Program-made: the position numbers and the translations under genes
Assembly (NCBI GenBank): GCA_037133475.1
Contig: JBAXOB010000015.1
Span: 9,460-73,459 of the forward strand
Direction: 5' to 3'
DNA from: Bacteroidota bacterium
GTDB lineage: Bacteria; Bacteroidota; Bacteroidia; Bacteroidales; FEN-979
DNA: 64,000 nt
Shown here: positions 1,512 through 12,343 of the stretch, in pieces
Layout: each line of letters starts with the position of its first letter
How positions within the stretch are numbered: the stretch's first letter is position 1
Notes under the pieces: model-generated
What the model was told of the DNA's origin: nothing
Database searches by the model: none
The model's input: only the letters and a program-made list of their open reading frames with translations

Positions 1512-2930
1512 TCACTTAACAAGTTCCATCGGGGGCTCTTTCCAGGTTCCATTGATTGCTTCATCCTTTGGCCAATAGAGCCTCATCACAGCCATAAACG
1601 GCCCTTTTGGCGCAGGGAGCCAGTTGTTCTCTTTTAATTTCCCAGGGGATTCACGCTGGACATACAGGGTGATTCCACCGTCATTGTCACGTTTAATAGT
1701 CGGAAGCATCGGAGAGTTGATAAGGTACCGGTTGATCGGATTGGCGACAAGAAGACTCTTGGGCAATTCATACATGGTGACTGACCAGAAGGCATTGACC
1801 GGGGGTAACTGGTCAGCTCTGAAGTGAAGGGTATAACGGTTTTTTGAACCATCAAGAATCTGCCCGGAGGCATCCGTTTTATAAATGGGATACATGGCTT
1901 CCTGTTTGGAATTCCCGAAAATGCCAAGGACAGCCGCAGTATAACGGTAGAGGTAGTTGTTATTCAGAAATTCCCTTGTACCGAACAATTGTCCGCTTGT
2001 CACCTTTCCGGTCATGATACTTGTCTCCTGGAAATCCTTCAAATCTTTCCATGCATCCTTCATCCCTTCTGCTATCGCTTGTTTCACTTCCGGGGAAAAC
2101 TTTTCAGGGTCAAATTTCTGACCGGGACCAATACCAATTTTAGCAAAACGGGCCATGAGTTCCTTTTCGGCAGGATTCGCAGGACAAAACTGTAACCAGA
2201 AGTTCAGTTCATCAAAGAATGCCAGGGATGTTTTTTGATCATCAACGGATATCGGTTTAAGGAACTCAATCTTTGGCGCCGGGGAGGGAACAGGTTTGCC
2301 TAAAAACGCTGAGAGTGTCTGAACTTTATATCCATCCTGGATTTTCTTTACGTTATCAAGGTCGGCAGGATTAAAAAGTTGTGTCCTGAAGGCTGCCAAA
2401 GCAAATTCCGTTTCCGACCTGATTACCTTATTGATCCCGGCGGGTGTTTCACCATTCCAACCTGGACCTGCAACCATGAAATTGCCCCCATCGTTTCCTG
2501 TGGTACGACTGCCAAAGTAACCAAAATTGAATGTATAGCAATCAACCAGCTGGATGGAAAAATACCGGTTTTTATCAATCTGAGGTACAGTAATAACAAT
2601 GGGTTCGGTTCGTAAATCCATACCCAGCATTGAATATGGCGTATCCGAGTTAGGCGTCTGAACCGCCTTGTCTTCCGGAGTAAAGACCCGTGCAATATTA
2701 CGTATTTGGTTAAATGGAGCTTTAAACTCAGGATTGTTGCTGTCGATGAAATATGCATAAATAATCCGATAGCCATCTACCATGGGAAACCCGTAAATAT
2801 AGGCTTCTTTAGCGATTGATCTCGCCTCCTCCGGTGTTACTTTGTTCTTCACGCCGGAACAACTTATCAGAACTCCTGTCAAAACCAGGAGACTTACCAT
2901 AAAGGGAATGGGGTTGATTTTGTTTTTCAT
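1512..2930 (-). CDS. DUF1254/DUF1214 domain-containing secreted protein
   Basis: 472 aa with a signal or lipoprotein N-terminus (LVLTGVLISCSG). DUF1254-type block: AYIYGFPMVDGYRIIY...TPNSDTPYS. DUF1214-type block: AFWSVTMYELPKSLLVANPINRYLINS. Confidence 0.8.
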   Translation of the reverse strand: MKNKINPIPFMVSLLVLTGVLISCSGVKNKVTPEEARSIAKEAYIYGFPMVDGYRIIYAYFIDSNNPEFKAPFNQIRNIARVFTPEDKAVQTPNSDTPYSMLGMDLRTEPIVITVPQIDKNRYFSIQLVDCYTFNFGYFGSRTTGNDGGNFMVAGPGWNGETPAGINKVIRSETEFALAAFRTQLFNPADLDNVKKIQDGYKVQTLSAFLGKPVPSPAPKIEFLKPISVDDQKTSLAFFDELNFWLQFCPANPAEKELMARFAKIGIGPGQKFDPEKFSPEVKQAIAEGMKDAWKDLKDFQETSIMTGKVTSGQLFGTREFLNNNYLYRYTAAVLGIFGNSKQEAMYPIYKTDASGQILDGSKNRYTLHFRADQLPPVNAFWSVTMYELPKSLLVANPINRYLINSPMLPTIKRDNDGGITLYVQRESPGKLKENNWLPAPKGPFMAVMRLYWPKDEAINGTWKEPPMELVK

Positions 2931-3368
2931 GACGAGGATATTTAGTTTTTCTTGTTTAATAACGTATTGAAAACAAAAATAAAAAGAAGTTAAAAAAAAT
3001 CAAAAAAAATCAAGCCTCGAACAGCCATAAATTATCATTCACGGTTTGCATGCAAGTTGTGAAAATGGCAAGTTCAGGTATCAAAGTTAATTTCTTGCAG
3101 TCAGCTCAAAGTCAGCACGTTGCCAAAGCATGACGCAAAGCGATTGTATAGACTTAACTGCCTGTGGTTATTTTTGTAATAGGTGAAATTACAACAATAT
3201 CGATACTTTAACCGGGCAACTGTAAAAAAGCCTGACAGATCGCTCCGGCAGGCTCTTCGACTAACCTTCTTATGAAAACAGCTAAAATACTTCCCGCAAT
3301 ATATGACAGGCAGGTTGGGATCCATCAGCAGGACCTCTTCATAAAAGGCCATCGGCGAACAATGCTGG

Positions 3369-3875
3369 TCACGATCGGTCCATGACACTGGTTTCATTTT
3401 CATCCACGCGCTGCGTCATATCAGTTTTAACAGATTGTTCCGGGTTGACCGGCAAATCGCCATTTCTTCTGATCAGAGACTCAAGCGTGGCGCTTTCCAG
3501 CTTTTCAAAAGTGGTATCCCTGATCTCCTTAAACACCTTACGGATATTGCAGGCGGTTTCATCTTTGCAAAATTCGCATGACTGGTAGGCCTTTTCCGAC
3601 ACGCACGACAACAGGGCGATCGGTCCTTCAAACTGGCGGACAATCTCCGCTAAATTGACATCCTTCGGGTGACGCAGTAAAAAATAGCCCCCGGTCTTGC
3701 CCAGTTTACTTCCCAGGATACCCATCTTTTTCAGTTCAAGCAGGATGTTTTCAAGGAAGCGCTGCGGCAGCATTTCACTTTTGGCCAACTCGCTGATCAG
3801 GATGGCCCCGTTGCCATATTCACGGGCCAGCCTTGTCAGTGCAACCATTGCATATCTTGTTTTCTTGGAGAGCAT
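3369..3875 (-). CDS. Rrf2 family transcriptional regulator (cluster-binding type)
   Basis: N-terminal wHTH signature MLSKKTRYAMVALTRLAREYG. Cys cluster SCVSEKAYQSCEFCKDETAC (C-x8-C-x2-C-x5-C) lies where IscR/NsrR-type Rrf2 proteins ligate Fe-S. Confidence 0.85.
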   Translation of the reverse strand: MLSKKTRYAMVALTRLAREYGNGAILISELAKSEMLPQRFLENILLELKKMGILGSKLGKTGGYFLLRHPKDVNLAEIVRQFEGPIALLSCVSEKAYQSCEFCKDETACNIRKVFKEIRDTTFEKLESATLESLIRRNGDLPVNPEQSVKTDMTQRVDENETSVMDRS

Positions 3876-3885
3876 AGCGACTGTT

Positions 3886-4590
3886 TTAGCCTTTTTTACT
3901 GATTTCCTTTAACTTATCCAAATCCTGGATGATGATCTTCCTCCCTTCGAAGCTGATCAGCCCCTCCTTGTTGTAATTGGACAGTACCGAAATGACATTT
4001 TCGTGGGAACAGGCGGCGAATTCGGCAATCTCCTTCCGCGTTAGGGTGAAATTGTATTCCGAATCCCTGTAAACAGTTTCCCAGAGAAAGACCAGGATGT
4101 CGGCAATCCGGCCATACACATGGTTGTGCGCAAGGCTGATGAAATTGAAGATCGACGACTGGAACATATCCGAAGAGCGTTCCACGATGGCCAGCAAAAG
4201 TTTCCCGTGGTTTTCCAGTACCCCCATCACATCCCGGTTGTCGAGGAAACAGATGTCGCAGTCCTCCACCGCGATAATGGAAAAGATATTCCGCTCCTTG
4301 AAAAACAGGTTGGCTTGGCCGATCAGTTTCGGTCCTGAAACCACGGTCATGATGTAATTCTTTTTGGGATCCTTCTGGTAGGTAAACTTGACAATCCCTT
4401 TGTGCAGGAACCCGATGCTGGTCGAGCTGGCTCCCTGTTTGAGGATCGACTCCCCCTTTTTAAAACTCAGCTGGGTTGCCTTTCCGCAAATTGTTTTACG
4501 CTCCTCTTCACTAAGCGAAAGCATGCCCAGCCTGGTGATGAAGCAATTGCTGCAGTCAAACTGAGCGTATGGGTTTCCGGTGAATTCCAT
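3886..4590 (-). CDS. Crp/Fnr family transcriptional regulator
   Basis: cNMP-binding-like beta-roll (FKKGESILKQGASSTSIGFLHKGIVKF) plus C-terminal HTH (LTRKEIAEFAACSHENVISVLSNYNKEGLISFEGRKIII). It has N-terminal Cys C13-x2-C16 and additional Cys residues. It lies 10 nt upstream of the Rrf2 gene on the same strand. Confidence 0.85.
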   Translation of the reverse strand: MEFTGNPYAQFDCSNCFITRLGMLSLSEEERKTICGKATQLSFKKGESILKQGASSTSIGFLHKGIVKFTYQKDPKKNYIMTVVSGPKLIGQANLFFKERNIFSIIAVEDCDICFLDNRDVMGVLENHGKLLLAIVERSSDMFQSSIFNFISLAHNHVYGRIADILVFLWETVYRDSEYNFTLTRKEIAEFAACSHENVISVLSNYNKEGLISFEGRKIIIQDLDKLKEISKKG

Positions 4591-4619
4591 AACATTTAAA
4601 GCTTTAGTATAAAATATTT

Positions 4620-4640
4620 AATATTCCGGTATCGAATATT
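4620..4640. promoter_or_regulatory. perfect 7-7-7 palindrome AATATTC-N7-GAATATT in the divergent control region (candidate operator)
   Basis: Read directly: aatattc cggtatc gaatatt. A third AATATT copy lies at 4613-4618. It sits between the divergent crp/rrf2 and ATPase operons. Confidence 0.35.
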
Positions 4641-4645
4641 AAGGG

Positions 4646-4653
4646 CAAATGTA
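4646..4653 (-). promoter_or_regulatory. candidate Bacteroidota -7 promoter box (TACATTTG) for the crp-rrf2 operon
   Basis: Matches the TAnnTTTG consensus on the minus strand, about 55 nt upstream of the ATG at 4590. Confidence 0.35.
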
Positions 4654-4671
4654 CATTAAATTGGTGAACAT
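4649..4671. promoter_or_regulatory. imperfect inverted repeat ATGTACA-N9-TGAACAT (candidate operator)
   Basis: 6 of 7 arm positions are complementary. It overlaps the minus-strand -7 box and lies just upstream of the plus-strand -7 box. Confidence 0.25.
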
Positions 4672-4677
4672 AGTGTA

Positions 4678-4685
4678 TATTTTTG
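4678..4685 (+). promoter_or_regulatory. candidate Bacteroidota -7 promoter box (TATTTTTG) for the ATPase-GTPase-nifS operon
   Basis: Matches TAnnTTTG, 18 nt upstream of the ATG at 4704. It overlaps the TTG at 4683 used by the ORF track, which argues for the ATG start. Confidence 0.4.
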
Positions 4686-4703
4686 CATAAAAAAATTTCT
4701 ACC

Positions 4704-5501
4704 ATGGATGTATATAAAATCAGCGTATTCGGCGGATACGGAAAAGACGGTTCAGAAGAGAAGGTAAACGAATTCAGCCTGGAGGTTGGCGACATTGTCA
4801 GCATTGTCGGGCCGACCGGTTGCGGCAAAACCACCCTGATCAACGACATTGAACTTTTTGCCAACCAAAACACCCCCTCGGGCCGCAGGGTTACCATCAA
4901 CGACGCGCCGGTGCCCGAAGATTTCATCTTCGATCCCTCGAATCATCCCATAGCCCTGATCTCGCAGCACACCAATTTCCTGAGTGACCTGCCCGTGGAT
5001 GAGTTCCTGACGATTCATGCCACGGTAAGGGGCGCGGTTGATGTTGAATCGATCATCGGCGAGACCCTGGATTTCGCCAACGAACTCACCGGCGAGCCGA
5101 TCATGAAAGATATCGCCATGACCGAGTTATCGGGAGGACAAACCCGGTCGCTGCTGATTGCCGATGCAGTGGTTATCGGCAACTCCCCGATCATCCTGCT
5201 GGATGAGATTGAAAATGCCGGTATTCACCGCACCAAGGCGCTGGAATTGCTGAAGCGGTACAAAAAAATCTTCGTATTTGTCACCCACGACCCCTGTATC
5301 GCCCTGATGTCGGATTTCAGGATTGTCATGAAAAACGGCGCCATGCAGCAACTGATCCATACCCGTCCCGAGGAACGGAGGGTTGCCCTGAAGATGAAGC
5401 AGATCGACGACATGATGCTTGACTTCCGCACGATCATCCGCTCGGGGGATGAGCTGACCGAATCAATTTTCAACGAAAATTTCAGCGTATTAACCTTTTA
5501 A
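4704..5501 (+). CDS. ABC-type ATPase with no adjacent permease or binding protein
   Basis: Walker A GPTGCGKTT, Q-loop ISQH, signature LSGGQTRS, Walker B IILLDE, H-loop VTHD. The ORF-track start at 4683 is TTG, so I prefer the ATG at 4704 (MDVYKISVFGG). Confidence 0.85.
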   Translation: MDVYKISVFGGYGKDGSEEKVNEFSLEVGDIVSIVGPTGCGKTTLINDIELFANQNTPSGRRVTINDAPVPEDFIFDPSNHPIALISQHTNFLSDLPVDEFLTIHATVRGAVDVESIIGETLDFANELTGEPIMKDIAMTELSGGQTRSLLIADAVVIGNSPIILLDEIENAGIHRTKALELLKRYKKIFVFVTHDPCIALMSDFRIVMKNGAMQQLIHTRPEERRVALKMKQIDDMMLDFRTIIRSGDELTESIFNENFSVLTF

Positions 5502-5510
5502 CTTTCCCAT

Positions 5511-6212
5511 ATGAAATTAGTAATTTTTGCCGGGCCGCCCACCTGCGGGAAAACCACGGTAATCAGGCAGGTGCTCAAACGGATGGCAGCAAGGCAGATC
5601 AAGGCAGCCTATCTGAAGATCGATGTGCTCTATGCCGACGATGACACCATTATTCAAAAGGAGTTTGGAATCCCTGTAAAGAAGATCTATTCCGGCGAAC
5701 TGTGTCCCGACCATTGCAATGTGGTGGTCCTGGACGAAGCTGTTGAGTGGGCCGATGCGTCAGGAGCCAGCTACCTGTTCGTGGAAACCGCCGGGTTATG
5801 CCTGCGTTGCTCTCCCTATGTGGAAAACTCCCTGGGGATTGTGGTGCTGGAGGCTACCAGCGGCATGAACCTGCCCCGCAAGATCGGCCCCATGCTTACC
5901 CTTGCCGACATCAGTGTCATCACCAAAATCGATCTCATTTCCCAGGCCGAACGCGAAGTGTTCCGTTACAGGGTACTCGAATCGGCAAAAGGGATCACCG
6001 TTGTTGAAAGCAACGCCCTTTACGGCATCGGCATCGACCCTATCGTAAAGCAGATCCTGAAAACCCCCGATATTGAATTTCCCATGTTCCTCAGGGGGAA
6101 TCCTCCCGTGGGTACCTGCACCATCTGTGTCGGGAAAAAGGAGATCGGGTCAAAACATCATTTCGGGGTGCTCCGCACGCTTGATGAAGGTCTTGTTTAC
6201 GTAGGAGAATAA
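5511..6212 (+). CDS. G3E-family (HypB/UreG/CobW-like) P-loop GTPase, Cys-rich
   Basis: Walker A GPPTCGKTT. G3E-type switch block FVETAGLCLRCSP (compare HypB ENVGNLVCP). NKxD-like ITKIDL. Three Cys pairs: CPDHC, CLRC, CTIC. It starts 9 nt after the ATPase gene. Confidence 0.7.
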   Translation: MKLVIFAGPPTCGKTTVIRQVLKRMAARQIKAAYLKIDVLYADDDTIIQKEFGIPVKKIYSGELCPDHCNVVVLDEAVEWADASGASYLFVETAGLCLRCSPYVENSLGIVVLEATSGMNLPRKIGPMLTLADISVITKIDLISQAEREVFRYRVLESAKGITVVESNALYGIGIDPIVKQILKTPDIEFPMFLRGNPPVGTCTICVGKKEIGSKHHFGVLRTLDEGLVYVGE

Positions 6213-6219
6213 CAGGCCC

Positions 6220-7419
6220 ATGACAAAACCCAGGATCTACCTTGACAATGCAGCCACCACCTGTGTGGATGAGCGGGTGATGGAAATCATGCACTCCCTG
6301 TTCACACAGGCTTACGGCAACGCGTCGAGTCTCCATCACTACGGGACGCAGGCAAAGGAACTCCTCGAAAATTCGAGGGCAACCCTGGCAAACTGTATCG
6401 GCGCTGACCCGGATGAAATATTTTTCACTTCGGGAGGAACAGAAGCCAACAATTGGGCGCTGAAGGGCATTGCCCATGCAAACAGGCACAAGGGGAAGCA
6501 CATCATCGTCTCCTCCATCGAGCATGATTGCATCCTGAACACCTGCAAATGGCTCGAAGATGAGGGATTTTTCATCACTTACCTGCCCGTTGACCCTGAA
6601 GGCATTGTCGACCTTGCCGCACTCAAGGAGGCCATCAACCCAAAAACGATCCTGGTTTCGGTGATGCACGCCAATAACGAGATCGGGACCATCCAGCCCG
6701 TCACAGAGATCGGAAGGATTTGCCGCGAACACAACCTTTACTTCCATTCCGATGGCTGCCAGTCGTTTGGTAAAATCCCGCTGGATGTGAATCAACAGTC
6801 AATCGACCTGCTTACCATCAATGCGCATAAGATATTTGGACCGAAAGGTACGGGCGCCTTGTACATCAGGAAAGGGACTGCTATCGTCCCCCTGCTTCAC
6901 GGGGGAGGCCAGGAGGGCGGATTACGTTCCACCACCGAGAATATCCCGGCCATCGCGGGTTTTGCACGTGCCGCCGAATTATGCATGGCCGAGATGGAAC
7001 AGGAGGGCCTGCGTTTAACTTCATTAAGGAAAAAACTTACCGCTTTCCTGTTTTCAAACTTCGACAATGCCTATCTCAACGGGCATGAAGAGAAGCGCCT
7101 GCCGGGCCATTTCAGCTTCAGTTTCCATGGTTTTGAAGGGGAAACCATCAGGCTGCTCTTCCTGCTCGACGAAGCGGGAATTGCCGTTTCGGCAGGGTCA
7201 GCCTGCTCTTCGAACGACCGTTCCCACAGCGCCTCCCATGTACTCCAGGCTATCGGGTTAAATCCATTCGAGGCCAGGGGCGGGATCAGGGTCAGCATGG
7301 GGCGGTTCACCACCGGGGAGGAGATCGACAGGTTCATTGAAAATCTTGAACGGTCGTTCAATAGTCTTACATCGATATTCTCGGGAAACTCATTCATTCG
7401 GGATGAGGTTACCCGTTGA
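6220..7419 (+). CDS. nifS: cysteine desulfurase, NifS/IscS-like (class V aminotransferase)
   Basis: IYLDNAATT N-terminus, SSIEHDCILN, PLP-lysine context TINAHKIFGPKGTGALY, and active-site loop SAGSACSS. Confidence 0.9.
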   Translation: MTKPRIYLDNAATTCVDERVMEIMHSLFTQAYGNASSLHHYGTQAKELLENSRATLANCIGADPDEIFFTSGGTEANNWALKGIAHANRHKGKHIIVSSIEHDCILNTCKWLEDEGFFITYLPVDPEGIVDLAALKEAINPKTILVSVMHANNEIGTIQPVTEIGRICREHNLYFHSDGCQSFGKIPLDVNQQSIDLLTINAHKIFGPKGTGALYIRKGTAIVPLLHGGGQEGGLRSTTENIPAIAGFARAAELCMAEMEQEGLRLTSLRKKLTAFLFSNFDNAYLNGHEEKRLPGHFSFSFHGFEGETIRLLFLLDEAGIAVSAGSACSSNDRSHSASHVLQAIGLNPFEARGGIRVSMGRFTTGEEIDRFIENLERSFNSLTSIFSGNSFIRDEVTR

Positions 7420-7523
7420 TTTTTTTAACCAAAAGAACAATTCCCAAGCCGCCATTGCGCCCTCATCCTGTCAATGCAACCATATATATATTCGGTTTAA
7501 AAACGCACCCAATTACCAAGAAG

Positions 7524-7751
7524 ATGAAAAACACCAATATTTTTACGCAACACCCTCAGCAGGTAAAGATGACCTACCTGCAGCATACCCTGTTTGCGCT
7601 GATGCTTGCCAGGAAAACACTTTCATGCGTATTTGCATCGCTGATCCACGCATTTTTTCCCTTCCTTTTTGTCACCCATACAAGCACAACGATCAGGGAA
7701 TTGAACAAAATCTTCGAAAAACGTTTCGGAGATCCTCCTCCGGCAGGCTGA
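7524..7751 (+). CDS. small membrane protein, DUF6356-like
   Basis: 75 aa from the ATG at 7524: MKNTNIFTQHPQQVKMTYLQHTLFALMLARKTLSCVFASLIHAFFPFLFVTHTSTTIRELNKIF. The pattern F..HP..V..TY..H...A......L.HAF.P.LF....S.TI.EL matches my recollection of DUF6356. The family assignment is from memory only. Confidence 0.5.
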   Translation: MKNTNIFTQHPQQVKMTYLQHTLFALMLARKTLSCVFASLIHAFFPFLFVTHTSTTIRELNKIFEKRFGDPPPAG

Positions 7752-7855
7752 CGGCAGGAAACCCAAGCCTGATGCAAAGCAAAGGCGTCGGCGCCAGTTT
7801 TCAGTGTAGTGAGCACAGTATTAGAAAATTCAACAATAATCATCAATAAAGCAAC

Positions 7856-8545
7856 ATGGAAGCATCCATAAAAGAGCCCAAAACAATGAATCTGCTCCCG
7901 CAGCTCGACTGCGGCGCCTGCGGATATAAGACCTGCGGTGAATTTGCCCAGGCTGTCGATAACACCGAAACCACCCTGAAAATGTGCATTCATGTGAAGC
8001 ACAACGGCACCTCCGTAAAAAACGTAATCGACCTGATCAACAGCAAGGAGACTGTGTCGGTAGGAGAAAAAATGGGATGGAAGGACCATCTGAAGCGCGA
8101 TTTTGACTTCATCCTCGACTGTTTCGAGAATGAACCCGGTCCCCGCGAAACCATCCTCCCCTATAATCCCGCACTGGTGAAGGAGCTGAATGTAAAGAAG
8201 GGCGATGTCATGATCGGTCGCCCGATGGGGATGTCGTGCGGTTGCCCGATCACCCATTGCGGCGTGGTTACCGATTCAGACCCCCGCAACGGCGTCATCA
8301 ACTGGTGCGTCACAGGTCCTCTCAGGCCCAGGTCGGAAGGTTTCGTCGACATTGGTTATTATGTTGCCCAGGGTTATGAAGGCATTATCAAGGATTCGAA
8401 GGAGAAGATCGAGCTGGGACGCAGGTACTGGTTCATGCCCCGCAGGTGTATGCTTCAATGGCGTCACAGCGGCCTTGTCAATGCCGTCACCAAGATGAAA
8501 GACGGGAGTTACAAAGTCAGGATTGAGGGTCTATTTATCGGCTAG
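7856..8545 (+). CDS. (Fe-S)-binding protein with RnfB-type N-terminal 4Fe-4S domain and a Cys-containing C-terminal domain
   Basis: LPQLDCGACGYKTCGEFAQAV...KMC gives C-x2-C-x4-C-x16-C, as in the RnfB N-terminal / PF04060 'FeS' domain. The C-terminal domain carries GMSCGCPITHCG. An alternative start is M11 (7886, MNLLPQLDCG). Confidence 0.75.
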   Translation: MEASIKEPKTMNLLPQLDCGACGYKTCGEFAQAVDNTETTLKMCIHVKHNGTSVKNVIDLINSKETVSVGEKMGWKDHLKRDFDFILDCFENEPGPRETILPYNPALVKELNVKKGDVMIGRPMGMSCGCPITHCGVVTDSDPRNGVINWCVTGPLRPRSEGFVDIGYYVAQGYEGIIKDSKEKIELGRRYWFMPRRCMLQWRHSGLVNAVTKMKDGSYKVRIEGLFIG

Positions 8546-8656
8546 GGTTCTCCTGGCTTATAAAAATACTGTCCGGTGCTGAATATTGGCTGGTTAGAAA
8601 TGGGTTAACGGATACTTCCCGGCGAACCGGAAGGAGGCTGGTTCCCTGGGAGACTC

Positions 8657-9958
8657 CTATTGCTTTCCCAGGGTATACCTCCCATTAACCCTGAGAAGTT
8701 TCCAGCCTGTCGCGGGTTTCAGCTTCCATCCCCTGCCCTCAGCCAGGGAGTCGGCAACCCGCCGTGGCGCTGCTACTGAAACATGTTTCCAGTCGGAACT
8801 GATCAGCGCACCGCAACTGTCAACTTCAAGGATTCCCCAAACATCGGTGATCCTCAGGTTGGGATAGACTGTTCCCAGCGAATCGAGCGGCACCAGGTTG
8901 CCGGGTGAAAAGCCCACCCCCATGTGGACGGACTGTATGGTCAGTACGCTGTCGCCCAGGAACATATCCCGGTACCGTTTCACCTGTTCCAATCGTATTA
9001 ATTCCCTTGCGTTTTCAATTGCGATTATTGAGTCGACCTTATAAAGTTTGCCGACTGACATAACCTCCTTTGACGAGGGAATCGCAGAACCGGCATTGAA
9101 AAAAGCCAGGAGAAACCCTGTCAGGTCTGTTTTTTGTTTGATTTTCAGGTTCCATGTTGAAACGGATTGCTGCATGAAATAACCGTAGACGGGCAAGGTG
9201 AAATAGGCAAAAGAGCGGACAAAGGTGTTAAGGTCATAAAACCAGTCGAGCTGGGAAGCATCATGTCGTTTAAATGCTTCAAAATTCCATCCGCTCAGGA
9301 CATTCCCGGTATACTCGGCGAGTCCTTCATTCATTTCGAGGGCGTTTTCATTCGTACGTGAACCCGGGAACAGGTGTTGCCGGTATTTCCTGAACATCAG
9401 CGCATGGGCAACATGGGGCGCCGGATTATCAGACCGTATCGCCTCCTTCAGCGCTTCAATCTCCATTTTCAACCAGGTCCGCCCCTCCCTTGTATCGAGA
9501 TGGGTGCACGATGCACCGGCCAGATTCTTAAACCCAACCTCAGGCTGGATCCGGTGAAAAGATTCATGGACCAGTACATTTATTTTTTCTGACTGCGTCA
9601 GGTCCAGGGGCCATCTGACCATGGTCCACCTCCGGCCATTCCATTCAACGGCAGAATTAGATATGATAAGGTTTTCAGGGAACAACCCCGCATAAATATC
9701 ACCGTGAAGCACCAGTGTCCTCTTTTTGTCGGGCATGTTTGCCAGCGCCAACCGTGTTCCCGGGTTGATCAGCAAGACCGGCCCCACCATTTTATGACGC
9801 CAAAGCCGGCCATTATCCTGTTTCAAAACCGCATCCAGCGCCGAGAACGCTTGTCGGGCCTGGTCAACCGTACTGTCGGAGAGCCGGTACCGCTGGCCGT
9901 AACAGCTGACGTTGCAAAGTAACACCAGCAAAACAACATAGAATCGCAGATACCCCAT
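8657..9958 (-). CDS. secreted gluzincin-like putative metallopeptidase (HExxH)
   Basis: Signal peptide (VVLLVLLCNVSCYGQ). HESFH motif in VLVHESFHRIQ, and a downstream NEGLAEY block reminiscent of the third-ligand Glu helix of MA-clan gluzincins. The family was not recognised. Confidence 0.55.
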   Translation of the reverse strand: MGYLRFYVVLLVLLCNVSCYGQRYRLSDSTVDQARQAFSALDAVLKQDNGRLWRHKMVGPVLLINPGTRLALANMPDKKRTLVLHGDIYAGLFPENLIISNSAVEWNGRRWTMVRWPLDLTQSEKINVLVHESFHRIQPEVGFKNLAGASCTHLDTREGRTWLKMEIEALKEAIRSDNPAPHVAHALMFRKYRQHLFPGSRTNENALEMNEGLAEYTGNVLSGWNFEAFKRHDASQLDWFYDLNTFVRSFAYFTLPVYGYFMQQSVSTWNLKIKQKTDLTGFLLAFFNAGSAIPSSKEVMSVGKLYKVDSIIAIENARELIRLEQVKRYRDMFLGDSVLTIQSVHMGVGFSPGNLVPLDSLGTVYPNLRITDVWGILEVDSCGALISSDWKHVSVAAPRRVADSLAEGRGWKLKPATGWKLLRVNGRYTLGKQ

Positions 9959-11545: not shown

Positions 11546-12220
11546 ATGAGGAAATGGCCGGAACTTTTATCTTTGCTGTTTTTTTTAACCAAATACAACA
11601 TTGACTTGAATTCAAAAACCGATAACCTGTTCCCGGTACATCACGAGATACTTAACAGGAAAGAAAAGGAGGCGCTGCTCAGGCAACGGTCTGTTGTTTT
11701 GTGGCTTACAGGATTTTCCGGAGCCGGTAAGACAACCATTGCAAAACATCTTGAAGTGGAACTTTACAGCATGGGATATCTGACCCAGATTCTCGATGGG
11801 GACAACATCCGCACCGGAGTTAACAACAACCTCGGATTTTCCGACAGTGACCGGTATGAGAACATCCGCAGGATCTCTGAAATCTCAAAATTATTTTTTC
11901 ATTGCGGCATTATCACTATAAACTGTTTTATCAGCCCTACTGAGGATATCAGGGAGCTGGCGCGCAAAATCATAGGGAAGGATGACCTGGTGGAAATATT
12001 CGTCAACGCCCCCCTGGATGTCTGTGAATACCGCGATGTCAAGGGGCTCTACTCAAAAGCCCGGAGGGGTGAGATCAAAGAATTTACAGGCATTACTTCG
12101 CCTTTTGAACCGCCAAGGCATACCGATATCGAAATCCGCACCGACCAGCTTTCCATAGAAGAATCTGTCAGGAAGATCCTGGACTTCATTCTTCCCCGCA
12201 TTGAATACAGCACGGTATAA
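11546..12220 (+). CDS. cysC: adenylyl-sulfate (APS) kinase
   Basis: VVLWLTGFSGAGKTTIA P-loop, LDGDNIR, LGFSDSDRYENIRRISE, FISP. The roughly 40-aa N-terminal extension is atypical, so the start is uncertain (in-frame TTG at 11606). Confidence 0.85.
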   Translation: MRKWPELLSLLFFLTKYNIDLNSKTDNLFPVHHEILNRKEKEALLRQRSVVLWLTGFSGAGKTTIAKHLEVELYSMGYLTQILDGDNIRTGVNNNLGFSDSDRYENIRRISEISKLFFHCGIITINCFISPTEDIRELARKIIGKDDLVEIFVNAPLDVCEYRDVKGLYSKARRGEIKEFTGITSPFEPPRHTDIEIRTDQLSIEESVRKILDFILPRIEYSTV

Positions 12221-12233
12221 ACCCCGAATCACC

Positions 12234-12343
12234 GCATTCCCGAATTCCTGCATTCCTGCATTCCCGCATTCCTGCATTTCTGCATTCCCGCATTCCTGCA
12301 TTCCTGCATTCCTGCATTCCTGCATTCCTGCATTCCCGCATTA
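12234..12343. repeat. 8-bp microsatellite (GCATTCCY), about 13.5 tandem units
   Basis: Counted directly: gcattccc gaattcct gcattcct gcattccc gcattcct gcatttct gcattccc then gcattcct x5, gcattccc, gcatta. It fills essentially the whole spacer between the cysC stop (12220) and the SPFH stop (12345). Confidence 0.95.

Follow-up and report, generated by a model that had tools for sequence, protein, structure and literature searches.

An ABC ATPase, a G3E NTPase and an Fe-S protein form a conserved triad that may assemble or deliver a metal-sulfur centre

We analyzed a stretch of 64,000 nucleotides (the window) from a Bacteroidota bacterium (GenBank assembly GCA_037133475.1, contig JBAXOB010000015.1, positions 9,460 to 73,459), in which a cassette of seven genes encodes a soluble ABC-type ATPase, a Cys-rich P-loop NTPase of the G3E family, a NifS-type cysteine desulfurase, a small membrane protein and a two-domain Fe-S protein, together with two divergently oriented regulators. 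The conserved unit of this cassette is a triad made of the ABC ATPase, the G3E NTPase and the Fe-S protein, which carries a PF04060 domain. This triad is retained jointly, with near-obligate synteny, in at least 15 bacterial and archaeal phyla. We observed these parts, their invariant ligand-type residues, an operator and a neighborhood of cysteine genes. It is quite possible, though short of probable, that the locus encodes a self-contained machine, driven by NTP and supplied with sulfur from cysteine, for the assembly or delivery of a metal-sulfur centre. An Fe-S cluster would be the likeliest such centre, with a heterometal-sulfur centre as a possible alternative.

Loci seeded with the Fe-S protein were obtained by scanning one genome per species with alignment A3 (the 22-sequence alignment A2 was too divergent), the window proteins being compared by tblastn, and loci seeded with the G3E protein were metagenome contigs drawn from the matches listed. 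The ABC gene was found directly upstream of the G3E gene in 44/45 of the genome loci and 64/65 of the metagenome loci (108/110 overall), and the Fe-S gene was found downstream in 45/45 and 44/45, respectively. The same order and strand, ABC-G3E-(NifS)-FeS, were repeated in about 125 independent loci from many phyla. A preliminary description of the cassette, made from the sequence of the window, had raised the co-conservation of an ATPase-GTPase-NifS-FeS quartet. Near-obligate co-conservation did hold for the ATPase, the GTPase and the Fe-S protein, with genome and metagenome seeds alike, but NifS proved to be an optional fourth gene and not a core member. The nifS gene directly follows the G3E gene in 23/45 of the Fe-S-seeded genome loci (51%) and 34/45 of the G3E-seeded metagenome loci (76%), and it is missing from the module in Methanobacterium, Methanoplasma, Gallionellaceae, Burkholderiales, and Prolixibacteraceae. 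Exceptions to the synteny were an Eremiobacterota chromosome (OY969579.1; L025, 10001-10684) with an Fe-S gene and no ABC or G3E gene within 10 kb, one locus with the order G3E-FeS-ABC (L147), and one without a detectable Fe-S gene after NifS (L154).

Full-length relatives of the Fe-S protein were found in Bacteroidota, Omnitrophota, Planctomycetota, Verrucomicrobiota, Chloroflexota, Acidobacteriota, Myxococcota, Desulfobacterota/Geobacteraceae, Gallionellaceae, Burkholderiales, Nitrospinota, Clostridiaceae, Eremiobacterota, and Hydrogenedentota, as well as in the archaeal Thermoplasmata and Methanoplasma. More than 2,000 relatives were detected, the top 120 of which share at least 71% identity and come from Bacteroidota metagenome-assembled genomes under generic names; at 50% clustering the family proved small, with 184 clusters at E < 1e-3. 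Among the 600 matches listed in the metagenome scan, 592 were true relatives, and the module is abundant in wetland, sediment, and digester metagenomes. Several longer relatives (P0161, P0162, P0216, and others) were considered as fusions and rejected as frameshifted miscalls of high-GC sequence. Between phyla, the orthologs of the three triad proteins are 38-94% identical (53-88% for the ABC protein; 58-94% for the G3E protein, bacteria and archaea included) and thus form distinct orthologous families. A second clade of the Fe-S protein, at about 30% identity, is carried by cultured Prolixibacteraceae and by Methanobacterium and Methanothermobacter, which keep ABC-G3E-FeS without NifS. In Methanobacterium and Methanothermobacter (L085, L086, and L090), the triad is flanked in conserved synteny by comA (phosphosulfolactate synthase) on one side and cofE (F420 ligase) on the other; in the two Methanobacterium loci (L085 and L086), TfuA and a PP-loop ATPase are encoded a few genes downstream. 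Mangrovibacterium marinum has two five-gene modules (L087 and L088), each composed of a HisKA_3 kinase, a LuxR-type regulator, the ABC protein, the G3E protein, and the Fe-S protein. Both adjoin MobC/relaxase genes, and L088 also has TraM, TraG, AAA_21/RloB, and PycTM.

The G3E protein matches the PF02492 (cobW) profile over residues 4-159 only (44.5 bits against a cut-off of 20.7), and its translation contains GPPTCGKTT, VETAGLCLRCSP, TKID, CPDHC, CLRC, and CTIC. The definition of the G3E motifs includes a Walker A GxxxxGK[ST] and an ExxG (PMC9164220). The Walker A GPPTCGKTT and the G3 motif VETAG are present, with G8, G13, K14, T15, E92, and G95 invariant, and the G4 position, where NKxD would serve guanine recognition, reads TKID, with T138, K139, and D141 invariant. 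The residues C65, P66, D67, H68, C97, R99, C100, C203, C206, and H217 are likewise invariant among the orthologs, as is the T138-K139-x-D141 motif as a whole. They include two Cys pairs, CxRC (C97/C100), directly after the Walker B ETAG, and CTxC (C203/C206). The best PDB matches of the profile were UreG and HypB, and in an alignment with UreG the CPDH motif falls on the CPH region, its His being displaced by one residue. However, the HypB (TIGR00073, 45.9 vs 121.2 bits), UreG (TIGR00101, 31.8 vs 204.2 bits), and MeaB (TIGR00750, 21.9 vs 240.75 bits) equivalog models were all missed, and the protein departs from COG0523/CobW in having CPDHC instead of CxCC and no CobW_C domain. Since these equivalogs are missed and neither CxCC nor CobW_C is present, the protein is placed outside the four recognized G3E subfamilies, all of which are metallochaperones (PMC9164220). 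Neighbor scans detected no hydrogenase or urease gene near the G3E gene in the fetched loci. The family call of the preliminary description therefore holds, yet a grouping with HypB/UreG fails on both scores and gene context.

The ABC protein exceeds the PF00005 cut-off (56.2 vs 25 bits), and its Walker A, LSGGQ, Walker B DE, and H-loop are kept across 49 orthologs, which share no conserved Cys. It reads DEIENAG where transporter ATPases usually have DEPTSALD. Its best-scoring NCBIfam families are transporter ATPases; neither the 25 top-ranking of the 144 NCBIfam matches nor the PDB matches at E <= 1e-8 include SufC, and the window protein does not appear to be SufC-like. An ABC transporter would be expected to have a cognate permease or binding protein co-encoded, which was not the case for these loci: permease domains were found in 6/207 neighbor proteins and were inconsistent between loci. 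The orthologs thus adjoin G3E and Fe-S genes and not permeases, in agreement with the "orphan" ATPase of the preliminary description. The gene is present on the plus strand as described there, although ATG 4704 is most likely its start, rather than 4683; a protein identical to the 265-aa product of ATG 4704 is present in a public protein collection.

The Fe-S protein is covered by a known family over residues 14-45 only (PF04060). Its N-terminal motif is C19-x2-C22-x4-C27-x16-C44, and a second motif, CGCPITHC, is present; C19, C22, C27, C44, C130, H134, C198, and H204 are invariant in the orthologs. Both motifs of the protein first described as "RnfB-type" were therefore found, but RnfB itself it is not, as the RnfB model TIGR01944 was missed (29.1 vs 68.7 bits) with a match to residues 11-47 alone. 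PDB profile matches were limited to the N-termini of RnfB and of the corrinoid iron-sulfur protein CFeSP (E = 1e-8 for the latter). The AlphaFold2 model (pLDDT 85.3) predicts a beta-rich C-terminal domain bearing the invariant Cys2His2 set C130, H134, C198, and H204. When this model was compared with the PDB using Foldseek, nothing was found at E <= 0.001 (best 0.02), and the sole convincing alignment joined 38 N-terminal residues to 2ycl_A with a root-mean-square deviation of 0.9 A. No Pfam family, NCBIfam model, or PDB relative (by profile or Foldseek) was found for the C-terminal domain, which appears to be a new beta domain. It should be noted that C69 of the G3E protein and C128 and C135 of the Fe-S protein are jointly absent in three groups (clade 2, Gallionellaceae, and Methanoplasma), and one exception was seen either way. 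The pattern hints at a site shared by the two proteins, although it is no proof.

The desulfurase passes the IscS-subfamily model PRK02948 (349.1 vs 304) and just misses the NifS equivalog TIGR03402 (473.6 vs 530.75). Its active-site C329 is conserved in 100% of the orthologs, and H203 of the H203-K204 pyridoxal phosphate motif in 97%, which identifies it as a class-I (IscS/NifS-type) cysteine desulfurase. The DUF6356 membrane protein is an occasional, mobile little insert. It is absent from most loci and is found inside the operon in L006 (2128-2310), L008 (8562-8780), and L100 (~7939); over the four Bacteroidota loci its position varies (after G3E or after NifS).

Neighbor proteins were clustered and then scanned with profiles. 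The commonest neighbor of the module is an Rrf2 regulator. The recurrent non-regulatory neighbors, found in at least five phyla, are cysK/PALP, metY or cystathionine-lyase-type genes, cysE, and CBS-domain PALP genes; in L011, L104, and L106, cysK is inserted into the module itself, after nifS and before the Fe-S gene. These neighbors therefore point to cysteine/sulfur supply rather than to nitrosative control. An FAD-NAD(P)-binding protein of about 460 aa (NAD_binding_9) is encoded a few genes from modules with cysE/cysK in two phyla. A HydE-type radical-SAM protein, which passes the HydE equivalog (351.8 vs 254.6 bits), is encoded between nifS and the Fe-S gene or beside the operon in Bacteroidales and in one Myxococcota metagenome-assembled genome; no HydF, HydG, or HydA gene was found next to it in L014 and L015, the loci whose flanks were scanned. 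No permease, hydrogenase, urease, or other metalloenzyme recurred around the module in the neighbor scans. A search for a client in ten loci found that the large co-directional genes downstream of the Fe-S gene were mutually unrelated (MutL, a multihaem cytochrome, a P-type ATPase, helicases, and kinases). The lack of an IscU, NifU, SufB, or SufD scaffold, first stated for the cassette, extends to every module locus.

The regulators of the module vary with lineage and are Rrf2 proteins, Crp/Fnr proteins, or a HisKA_3 kinase with a LuxR-type response regulator; a Crp/Fnr gene accompanies the module in Bacteroidota only. The window has a four-Cys Rrf2 protein and a Crp/Fnr protein with N-terminal Cys, both as first described. 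The Cys motif of the former is C91-x8-C100-x2-C103-x5-C109, a spacing that differs from the three-Cys cluster site of IscR/NsrR. This protein satisfies the Rrf2 superfamily model (100.4 vs 73.3) and falls below the IscR (62.5 vs 207.55), CymR (69.9 vs 195), and NsrR (42.3 vs 182) equivalogs. The Crp/Fnr protein has the superfamily domains, misses the FNR model (34.4 vs 228 bits), and near its N-terminus has C13 and C16 as its only Cys. Outside Bacteroidota, the adjacent Rrf2 genes are co-directional with the operon, and their products mostly lack Cys in the usual cluster-binding segment. Because most of these Rrf2 proteins are Cys-less, the redox or NO control by cluster-bearing regulators that had been proposed cannot be the general logic of the module.

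In 12 loci, which represent at least six phyla, the ABC gene is directly preceded by a palindrome resembling GACTAATCC-CATA-GGATAAC. These palindromes score 18-23 bits with a matrix built from these same sites, against a maximum of 17.9 bits elsewhere in 1.3 Mb. A related pattern, TGTAC-N11-GTACA with at most one mismatch, was found upstream of the ABC gene in six Bacteroidota-type loci, namely five with a four-Cys Rrf2 gene and L009, and in 0/20 other Crp-only loci. Related sites were seen in further Rrf2 loci, and one of them (ATACACTAAATCAATAGAC, L099) shares its core with the operator of the other phyla. The core of the imperfect palindrome of the window resembles this operator too. The perfect inverted repeat next to it is no more than partly conserved even in L005, the closest locus. 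The operon would be controlled by a single Rrf2 lineage, some members of which have Cys and others not. The element TATTTTTG is probably the Bacteroidota -7 promoter element, the consensus of which is TAnnTTTG. A scan of positions 2900-9000 against Rfam gave no RNA leader or riboswitch match, and a scan for sigma-70 promoters and terminators gave no more sites than shuffled sequence.

From these data, we infer the function of the module, all of its biochemical steps, its metal, and its client as follows. Cysteine, sometimes made by co-encoded CysK/CysE, would be desulfurated by the class-I NifS; in lineages without nifS, ambient sulfide or a housekeeping desulfurase could serve as the sulfur source. 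A dimer of the G3E protein would hold a metal or a nascent cluster at the CPDH site, taken as the position of the Ni site of UreG, and at the CxRC pair that directly follows Walker B, and would release it on GTP hydrolysis. The Fe-S protein would take or hold the centre on its C-terminal Cys2His2 set, and its N-terminal low-potential [4Fe-4S] domain may give electrons for persulfide reduction or cluster fusion. Opening and closing of the complex would be driven by conformational changes of the soluble ABC dimer, the part that SufC plays for SufBD. Expression would be coupled to cysteine or cluster status by an Rrf2 repressor bound to the conserved operator upstream of the ABC gene, with the Crp/Fnr regulator as an added control in Bacteroidota.

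Such a machine would share features with several known systems. Like SUF and SMS (SufBC2D with SufSE; SmsCB), the module has a soluble, permease-free ABC-type ATPase, a desulfurase in the operon, a Cys-bearing partner that is not an NTPase, and frequent control by an Rrf2-family repressor. It has, however, no SufB/SufD beta-helix scaffold and no SufE/SufU, its ABC protein does not resemble SufC, its desulfurase belongs to class I and not to SufS, and it has a G3E NTPase and a PF04060 domain in addition. With the G3E systems (HypAB of [NiFe]-hydrogenase, UreDEFG of urease, CobW/ZNG1/Nha3, and MeaB), the module shares the G3E fold, Walker A and ExxG, a Cys/His metal motif at the CPH position of UreG, and a dedicated partner encoded next door. 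It differs from them in TKxD instead of NKxD, in the absence of CxCC/CobW_C, in the extra invariant CxRC and CTxC pairs, and in being paired with an ABC ATPase; B12, nitrile-hydratase, hydrogenase, and urease genes were not seen nearby. NIF and ISC (nifUS with cysE1; cysE2-iscRSUA) also combine a class-I desulfurase with an Rrf2 regulator, and cysteine genes beside a cluster-assembly operon have a precedent in Azotobacter, where cysE is found together with nifUS and iscRSU. Unlike NIF and ISC, the module has no U- or A-type scaffold, HscAB, or ferredoxin, and its desulfurase is dispensable in half of the lineages. By analogy with the cluster-bridging SIMIBI NTPases (Mrp/NBP35/ApbC, NifH, and CooC), a P-loop NTPase dimer with a CxxC pair near switch II could hold a bridging cluster or metal and let it go on NTP hydrolysis, although the protein of the module belongs to the G3E and not the MinD/Mrp branch. 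Finally, the Fe-S protein has the same C-x2-C-x4-C-x16-C as the N-terminal [4Fe-4S] domains of CFeSP (AcsC/CdhE) and RnfB, without the corrinoid-binding TIM barrel of the former or the membrane anchor and ferredoxin dicluster domains of the latter.

No paper or annotation describing the module was found in full-text literature and database annotation searches, as the preliminary description had supposed for this gene combination, and the database names of the module proteins are generic or misleading. A further step, which we regard as doubtful though conceivable, would be to see in the triad (with NifS where present) an unrecognized type of metallocluster biogenesis distinct from ISC, SUF, NIF, SMS, and MIS. 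Its parts would be a G3E protein of a fifth subfamily, a soluble ABC ATPase dedicated to the system, and a scaffold/electron donor with a new Cys2His2 beta domain, and it would have spread horizontally among anaerobic and microaerobic bacteria and archaea.

Several points weigh against a machine for metal-sulfur centres. The support for it comes from the gene level. No U-type, A-type, or SufBD scaffold is encoded, and the ABC protein does not look like SufC. With SUF usually present in Bacteroidota and SufBC-type systems in Methanobacteria, another general system for Fe-S clusters would have to fill some special role. The mostly Cys-less Rrf2 proteins look like CymR-type regulators of cysteine status and not like IscR-type regulators, and the CPxH site of the G3E protein could equally bind Ni, Zn, or Co. 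Why a 229-aa protein would need two dedicated NTPases is unexplained. Lastly, some copies are carried by conjugative transposons under a two-component system, which would be less expected of core biogenesis than of an accessory or stress trait.

Two other explanations deserve attention, both of which we consider unlikely. In the first, the module would belong to the cysteine regulon as a branch for sulfur trafficking, and the Fe-S protein would be a small reductase or carrier of persulfide, polysulfide, or S0. Sulfane sulfur from NifS or the environment would be converted to sulfide for CysK/MetY, the NTPases would gate or mature the Fe-S protein, and the end product would be mobilized sulfur and not a metal cluster. 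The recurrent neighbors other than regulators, found in at least five phyla, are limited to cysK, cysE, metY/CGL, and CBS-type genes, which fits this explanation, as do the CymR-like lack of Cys in the operon-side Rrf2 proteins of most phyla, the lone adenosine phosphosulfate (APS) kinase gene 3 kb downstream in the window, and the PF04060 domain, an electron-entry module. However, half of the loci have no NifS and most have no cys or met gene at all, the window Rrf2 protein misses the CymR equivalog (see above), and it would be circular to desulfurate cysteine in order to make cysteine. In addition, a G3E NTPase with five invariant Cys and two invariant His is unprecedented in a sulfur relay, and the characterized G3E proteins all handle metals or cofactors (PMC9164220).

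In the second, the Fe-S protein would itself be what the module serves, whether as an enzyme or as a reductive activator that depends on ATP. The G3E protein would load the Cys2His2 set of the Fe-S protein with a mononuclear metal (Ni, Fe, Co, or Zn), and the ABC ATPase would couple ATP hydrolysis to the delivery of low-potential electrons from the [4Fe-4S] domain to an unlinked client. Component A2 in the activation of methyl-CoM reductase and PhnK/PhnL on C-P lyase may be analogs. The position of CPDH at the UreG Ni site would suit such a role, as would the match of the N-terminal domain to that of CFeSP, whose [4Fe-4S] domain receives electrons during the reductive activation of CFeSP. The HydE-type genes in or next to the operon in six loci (Table 1) and the usual behavior of G3E proteins, which load one specific target encoded nearby (PMC9164220), point the same way, the Fe-S protein being the only constant neighbor that is not an NTPase. 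Yet no recurrent client was seen in the neighbor scans, no known enzyme is detectably related to the C-terminal domain, and the frequent NifS and cysK would be left unexplained.

It is very unlikely that the module is mobile cargo of an accessory or stress-related kind (such as tolerance to metal(loid)s or oxidants, or an unrecognized defense) that spreads horizontally and is wired to local regulators. The two Mangrovibacterium marinum copies do sit in conjugative-transposon regions by defense-type genes, the type of regulator changes with lineage, and the cross-phylum identity of the G3E protein, bacteria and archaea included, suggests horizontal transfer. Against this, the Methanobacteria copy is chromosomal and syntenic, such strong sequence conservation is unlike that of defense genes, and the link to cysteine genes would be unexplained. 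A defense system was considered and is not supported by PADLOC, which gave no match for the G3E, Fe-S, and DUF6356 proteins; its match of NifS to DndA/SspA reflects a generic desulfurase only. Among 2.9 million viral contigs, a single partial relative (32% identity, residues 1-93) and no full-length copy were found. Least credible of all, and excluded because the synteny is near-obligate and the family tests failed, is an assembly of chance neighbors (a displaced transporter ATPase, HypB/UreG, a housekeeping IscS, and a stray RnfB fragment), for which the automatic names "ABC-type lipoprotein export system ATPase subunit" and [quoted passage not shown] and the transporter ATPases among the best ABC matches might speak, but not the three-gene order kept in at least 15 phyla from both seeding directions, the HypB, UreG, and RnfB scores far under their cut-offs, the absence of a recurring permease, hydrogenase, or urease, or the cross-phylum identity of three distinct families.

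The features of the cassette are listed in Table 1. All genes and motifs of the preliminary description were found in place in the list of open reading frames and their translations, including the 9-nt gap between the ABC and G3E genes (5502-5510) and the 7-nt gap between the G3E and nifS genes (6213-6219), and its domain calls were all correct in Pfam profile searches, every call exceeding the Pfam cut-offs.

Table 1 Features of the window cassette and of selected neighbor genes in other loci
Feature	Position	Strand or context	Remarks
Rrf2-family regulator, 168 aa	3369-3875	(-)	PF02082, 112.5 bits
Crp/Fnr-family regulator, 234 aa	3886-4590	(-), divergent from operon	PF00027 and PF13545
Perfect inverted repeat TTAATATTC-N7-GAATATTAA	4618-4642	divergent intergenic region	9-nt arms, 100% complementary
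Operator-like imperfect palindrome ATGTAC-N11-GAACAT	4649-4671	just upstream of Bacteroidota-type -7 box	
Candidate Bacteroidota -7 promoter element TATTTTTG	4678-4685	(+)	match to TAnnTTTG
Soluble ABC-type ATPase, 265 aa	4704-5501 (open reading frame 4683-5501)	(+)	PF00005, 56.2 bits
Cys-rich G3E P-loop NTPase, 233 aa	5511-6212	(+)	PF02492, 44.5 bits
Class-I (IscS/NifS-type) cysteine desulfurase, 399 aa	6220-7419	(+)	PF00266, 279.5 bits
DUF6356 small membrane protein, 75 aa	7524-7751 (within open reading frame 7416-7751)	(+)	PF19883, 65.1 bits
Two-domain Fe-S protein, 229 aa	7856-8545	(+)	PF04060, 44.6 bits, residues 14-45
HydE-type gene, L014	8860-9954		
HydE-type gene, L015	8854-9966		
HydE-type gene, L011	4374-5477		
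HydE-type gene, L021	3292-4404		
HydE-type gene, L110	~7909		
HydE-type gene, L111	~7880		
NAD_binding_9 gene, L004	12793-14181		
NAD_binding_9 gene, L009	17731-19113		
NAD_binding_9 gene, L042	15352-16758		

The remainder of the window contains the APS kinase gene, an SPFH gene, peptidases, and a Sus-like starch locus, with no obvious client enzyme. The APS kinase gene (11546-12220, plus strand; PF01583, 201 bits) stands alone, with no cysD, cysN, or cysH within reach, and a tie to the sulfur theme of the cassette is possible. Between it and the SPFH/band-7 gene lies a tandem array (12234-12342) of 13.6 copies of the 8-bp unit GCATTCCT, which also forms a 24-bp super-unit in 4.5 copies with 90-94% matches. 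The Sus-like locus for starch utilization (24835-47043) has SusC/SusD/SusE-F-type genes, several GH13 genes, and one GH77 gene; it has no bearing on the cassette, but it marks the source as a member of Bacteroidota.

The biogenesis of Fe-S clusters and metallocentres is thought to be covered by a few systems. If our reading is true, the module would bring a fifth lineage into the G3E family, accompanied by a dedicated ABC ATPase and by a metal-binding domain that is new. Its carriers include cultured and tractable organisms (Mangrovibacterium marinum, Maribellus maritimus, and Methanobacterium spp.), and its function is therefore directly testable. Naming the module would also correct the automatic names under which its proteins are now filed and which mislead, "lipoprotein export ATPase" and "Ni-binding GTPase for urease/hydrogenase" among them.

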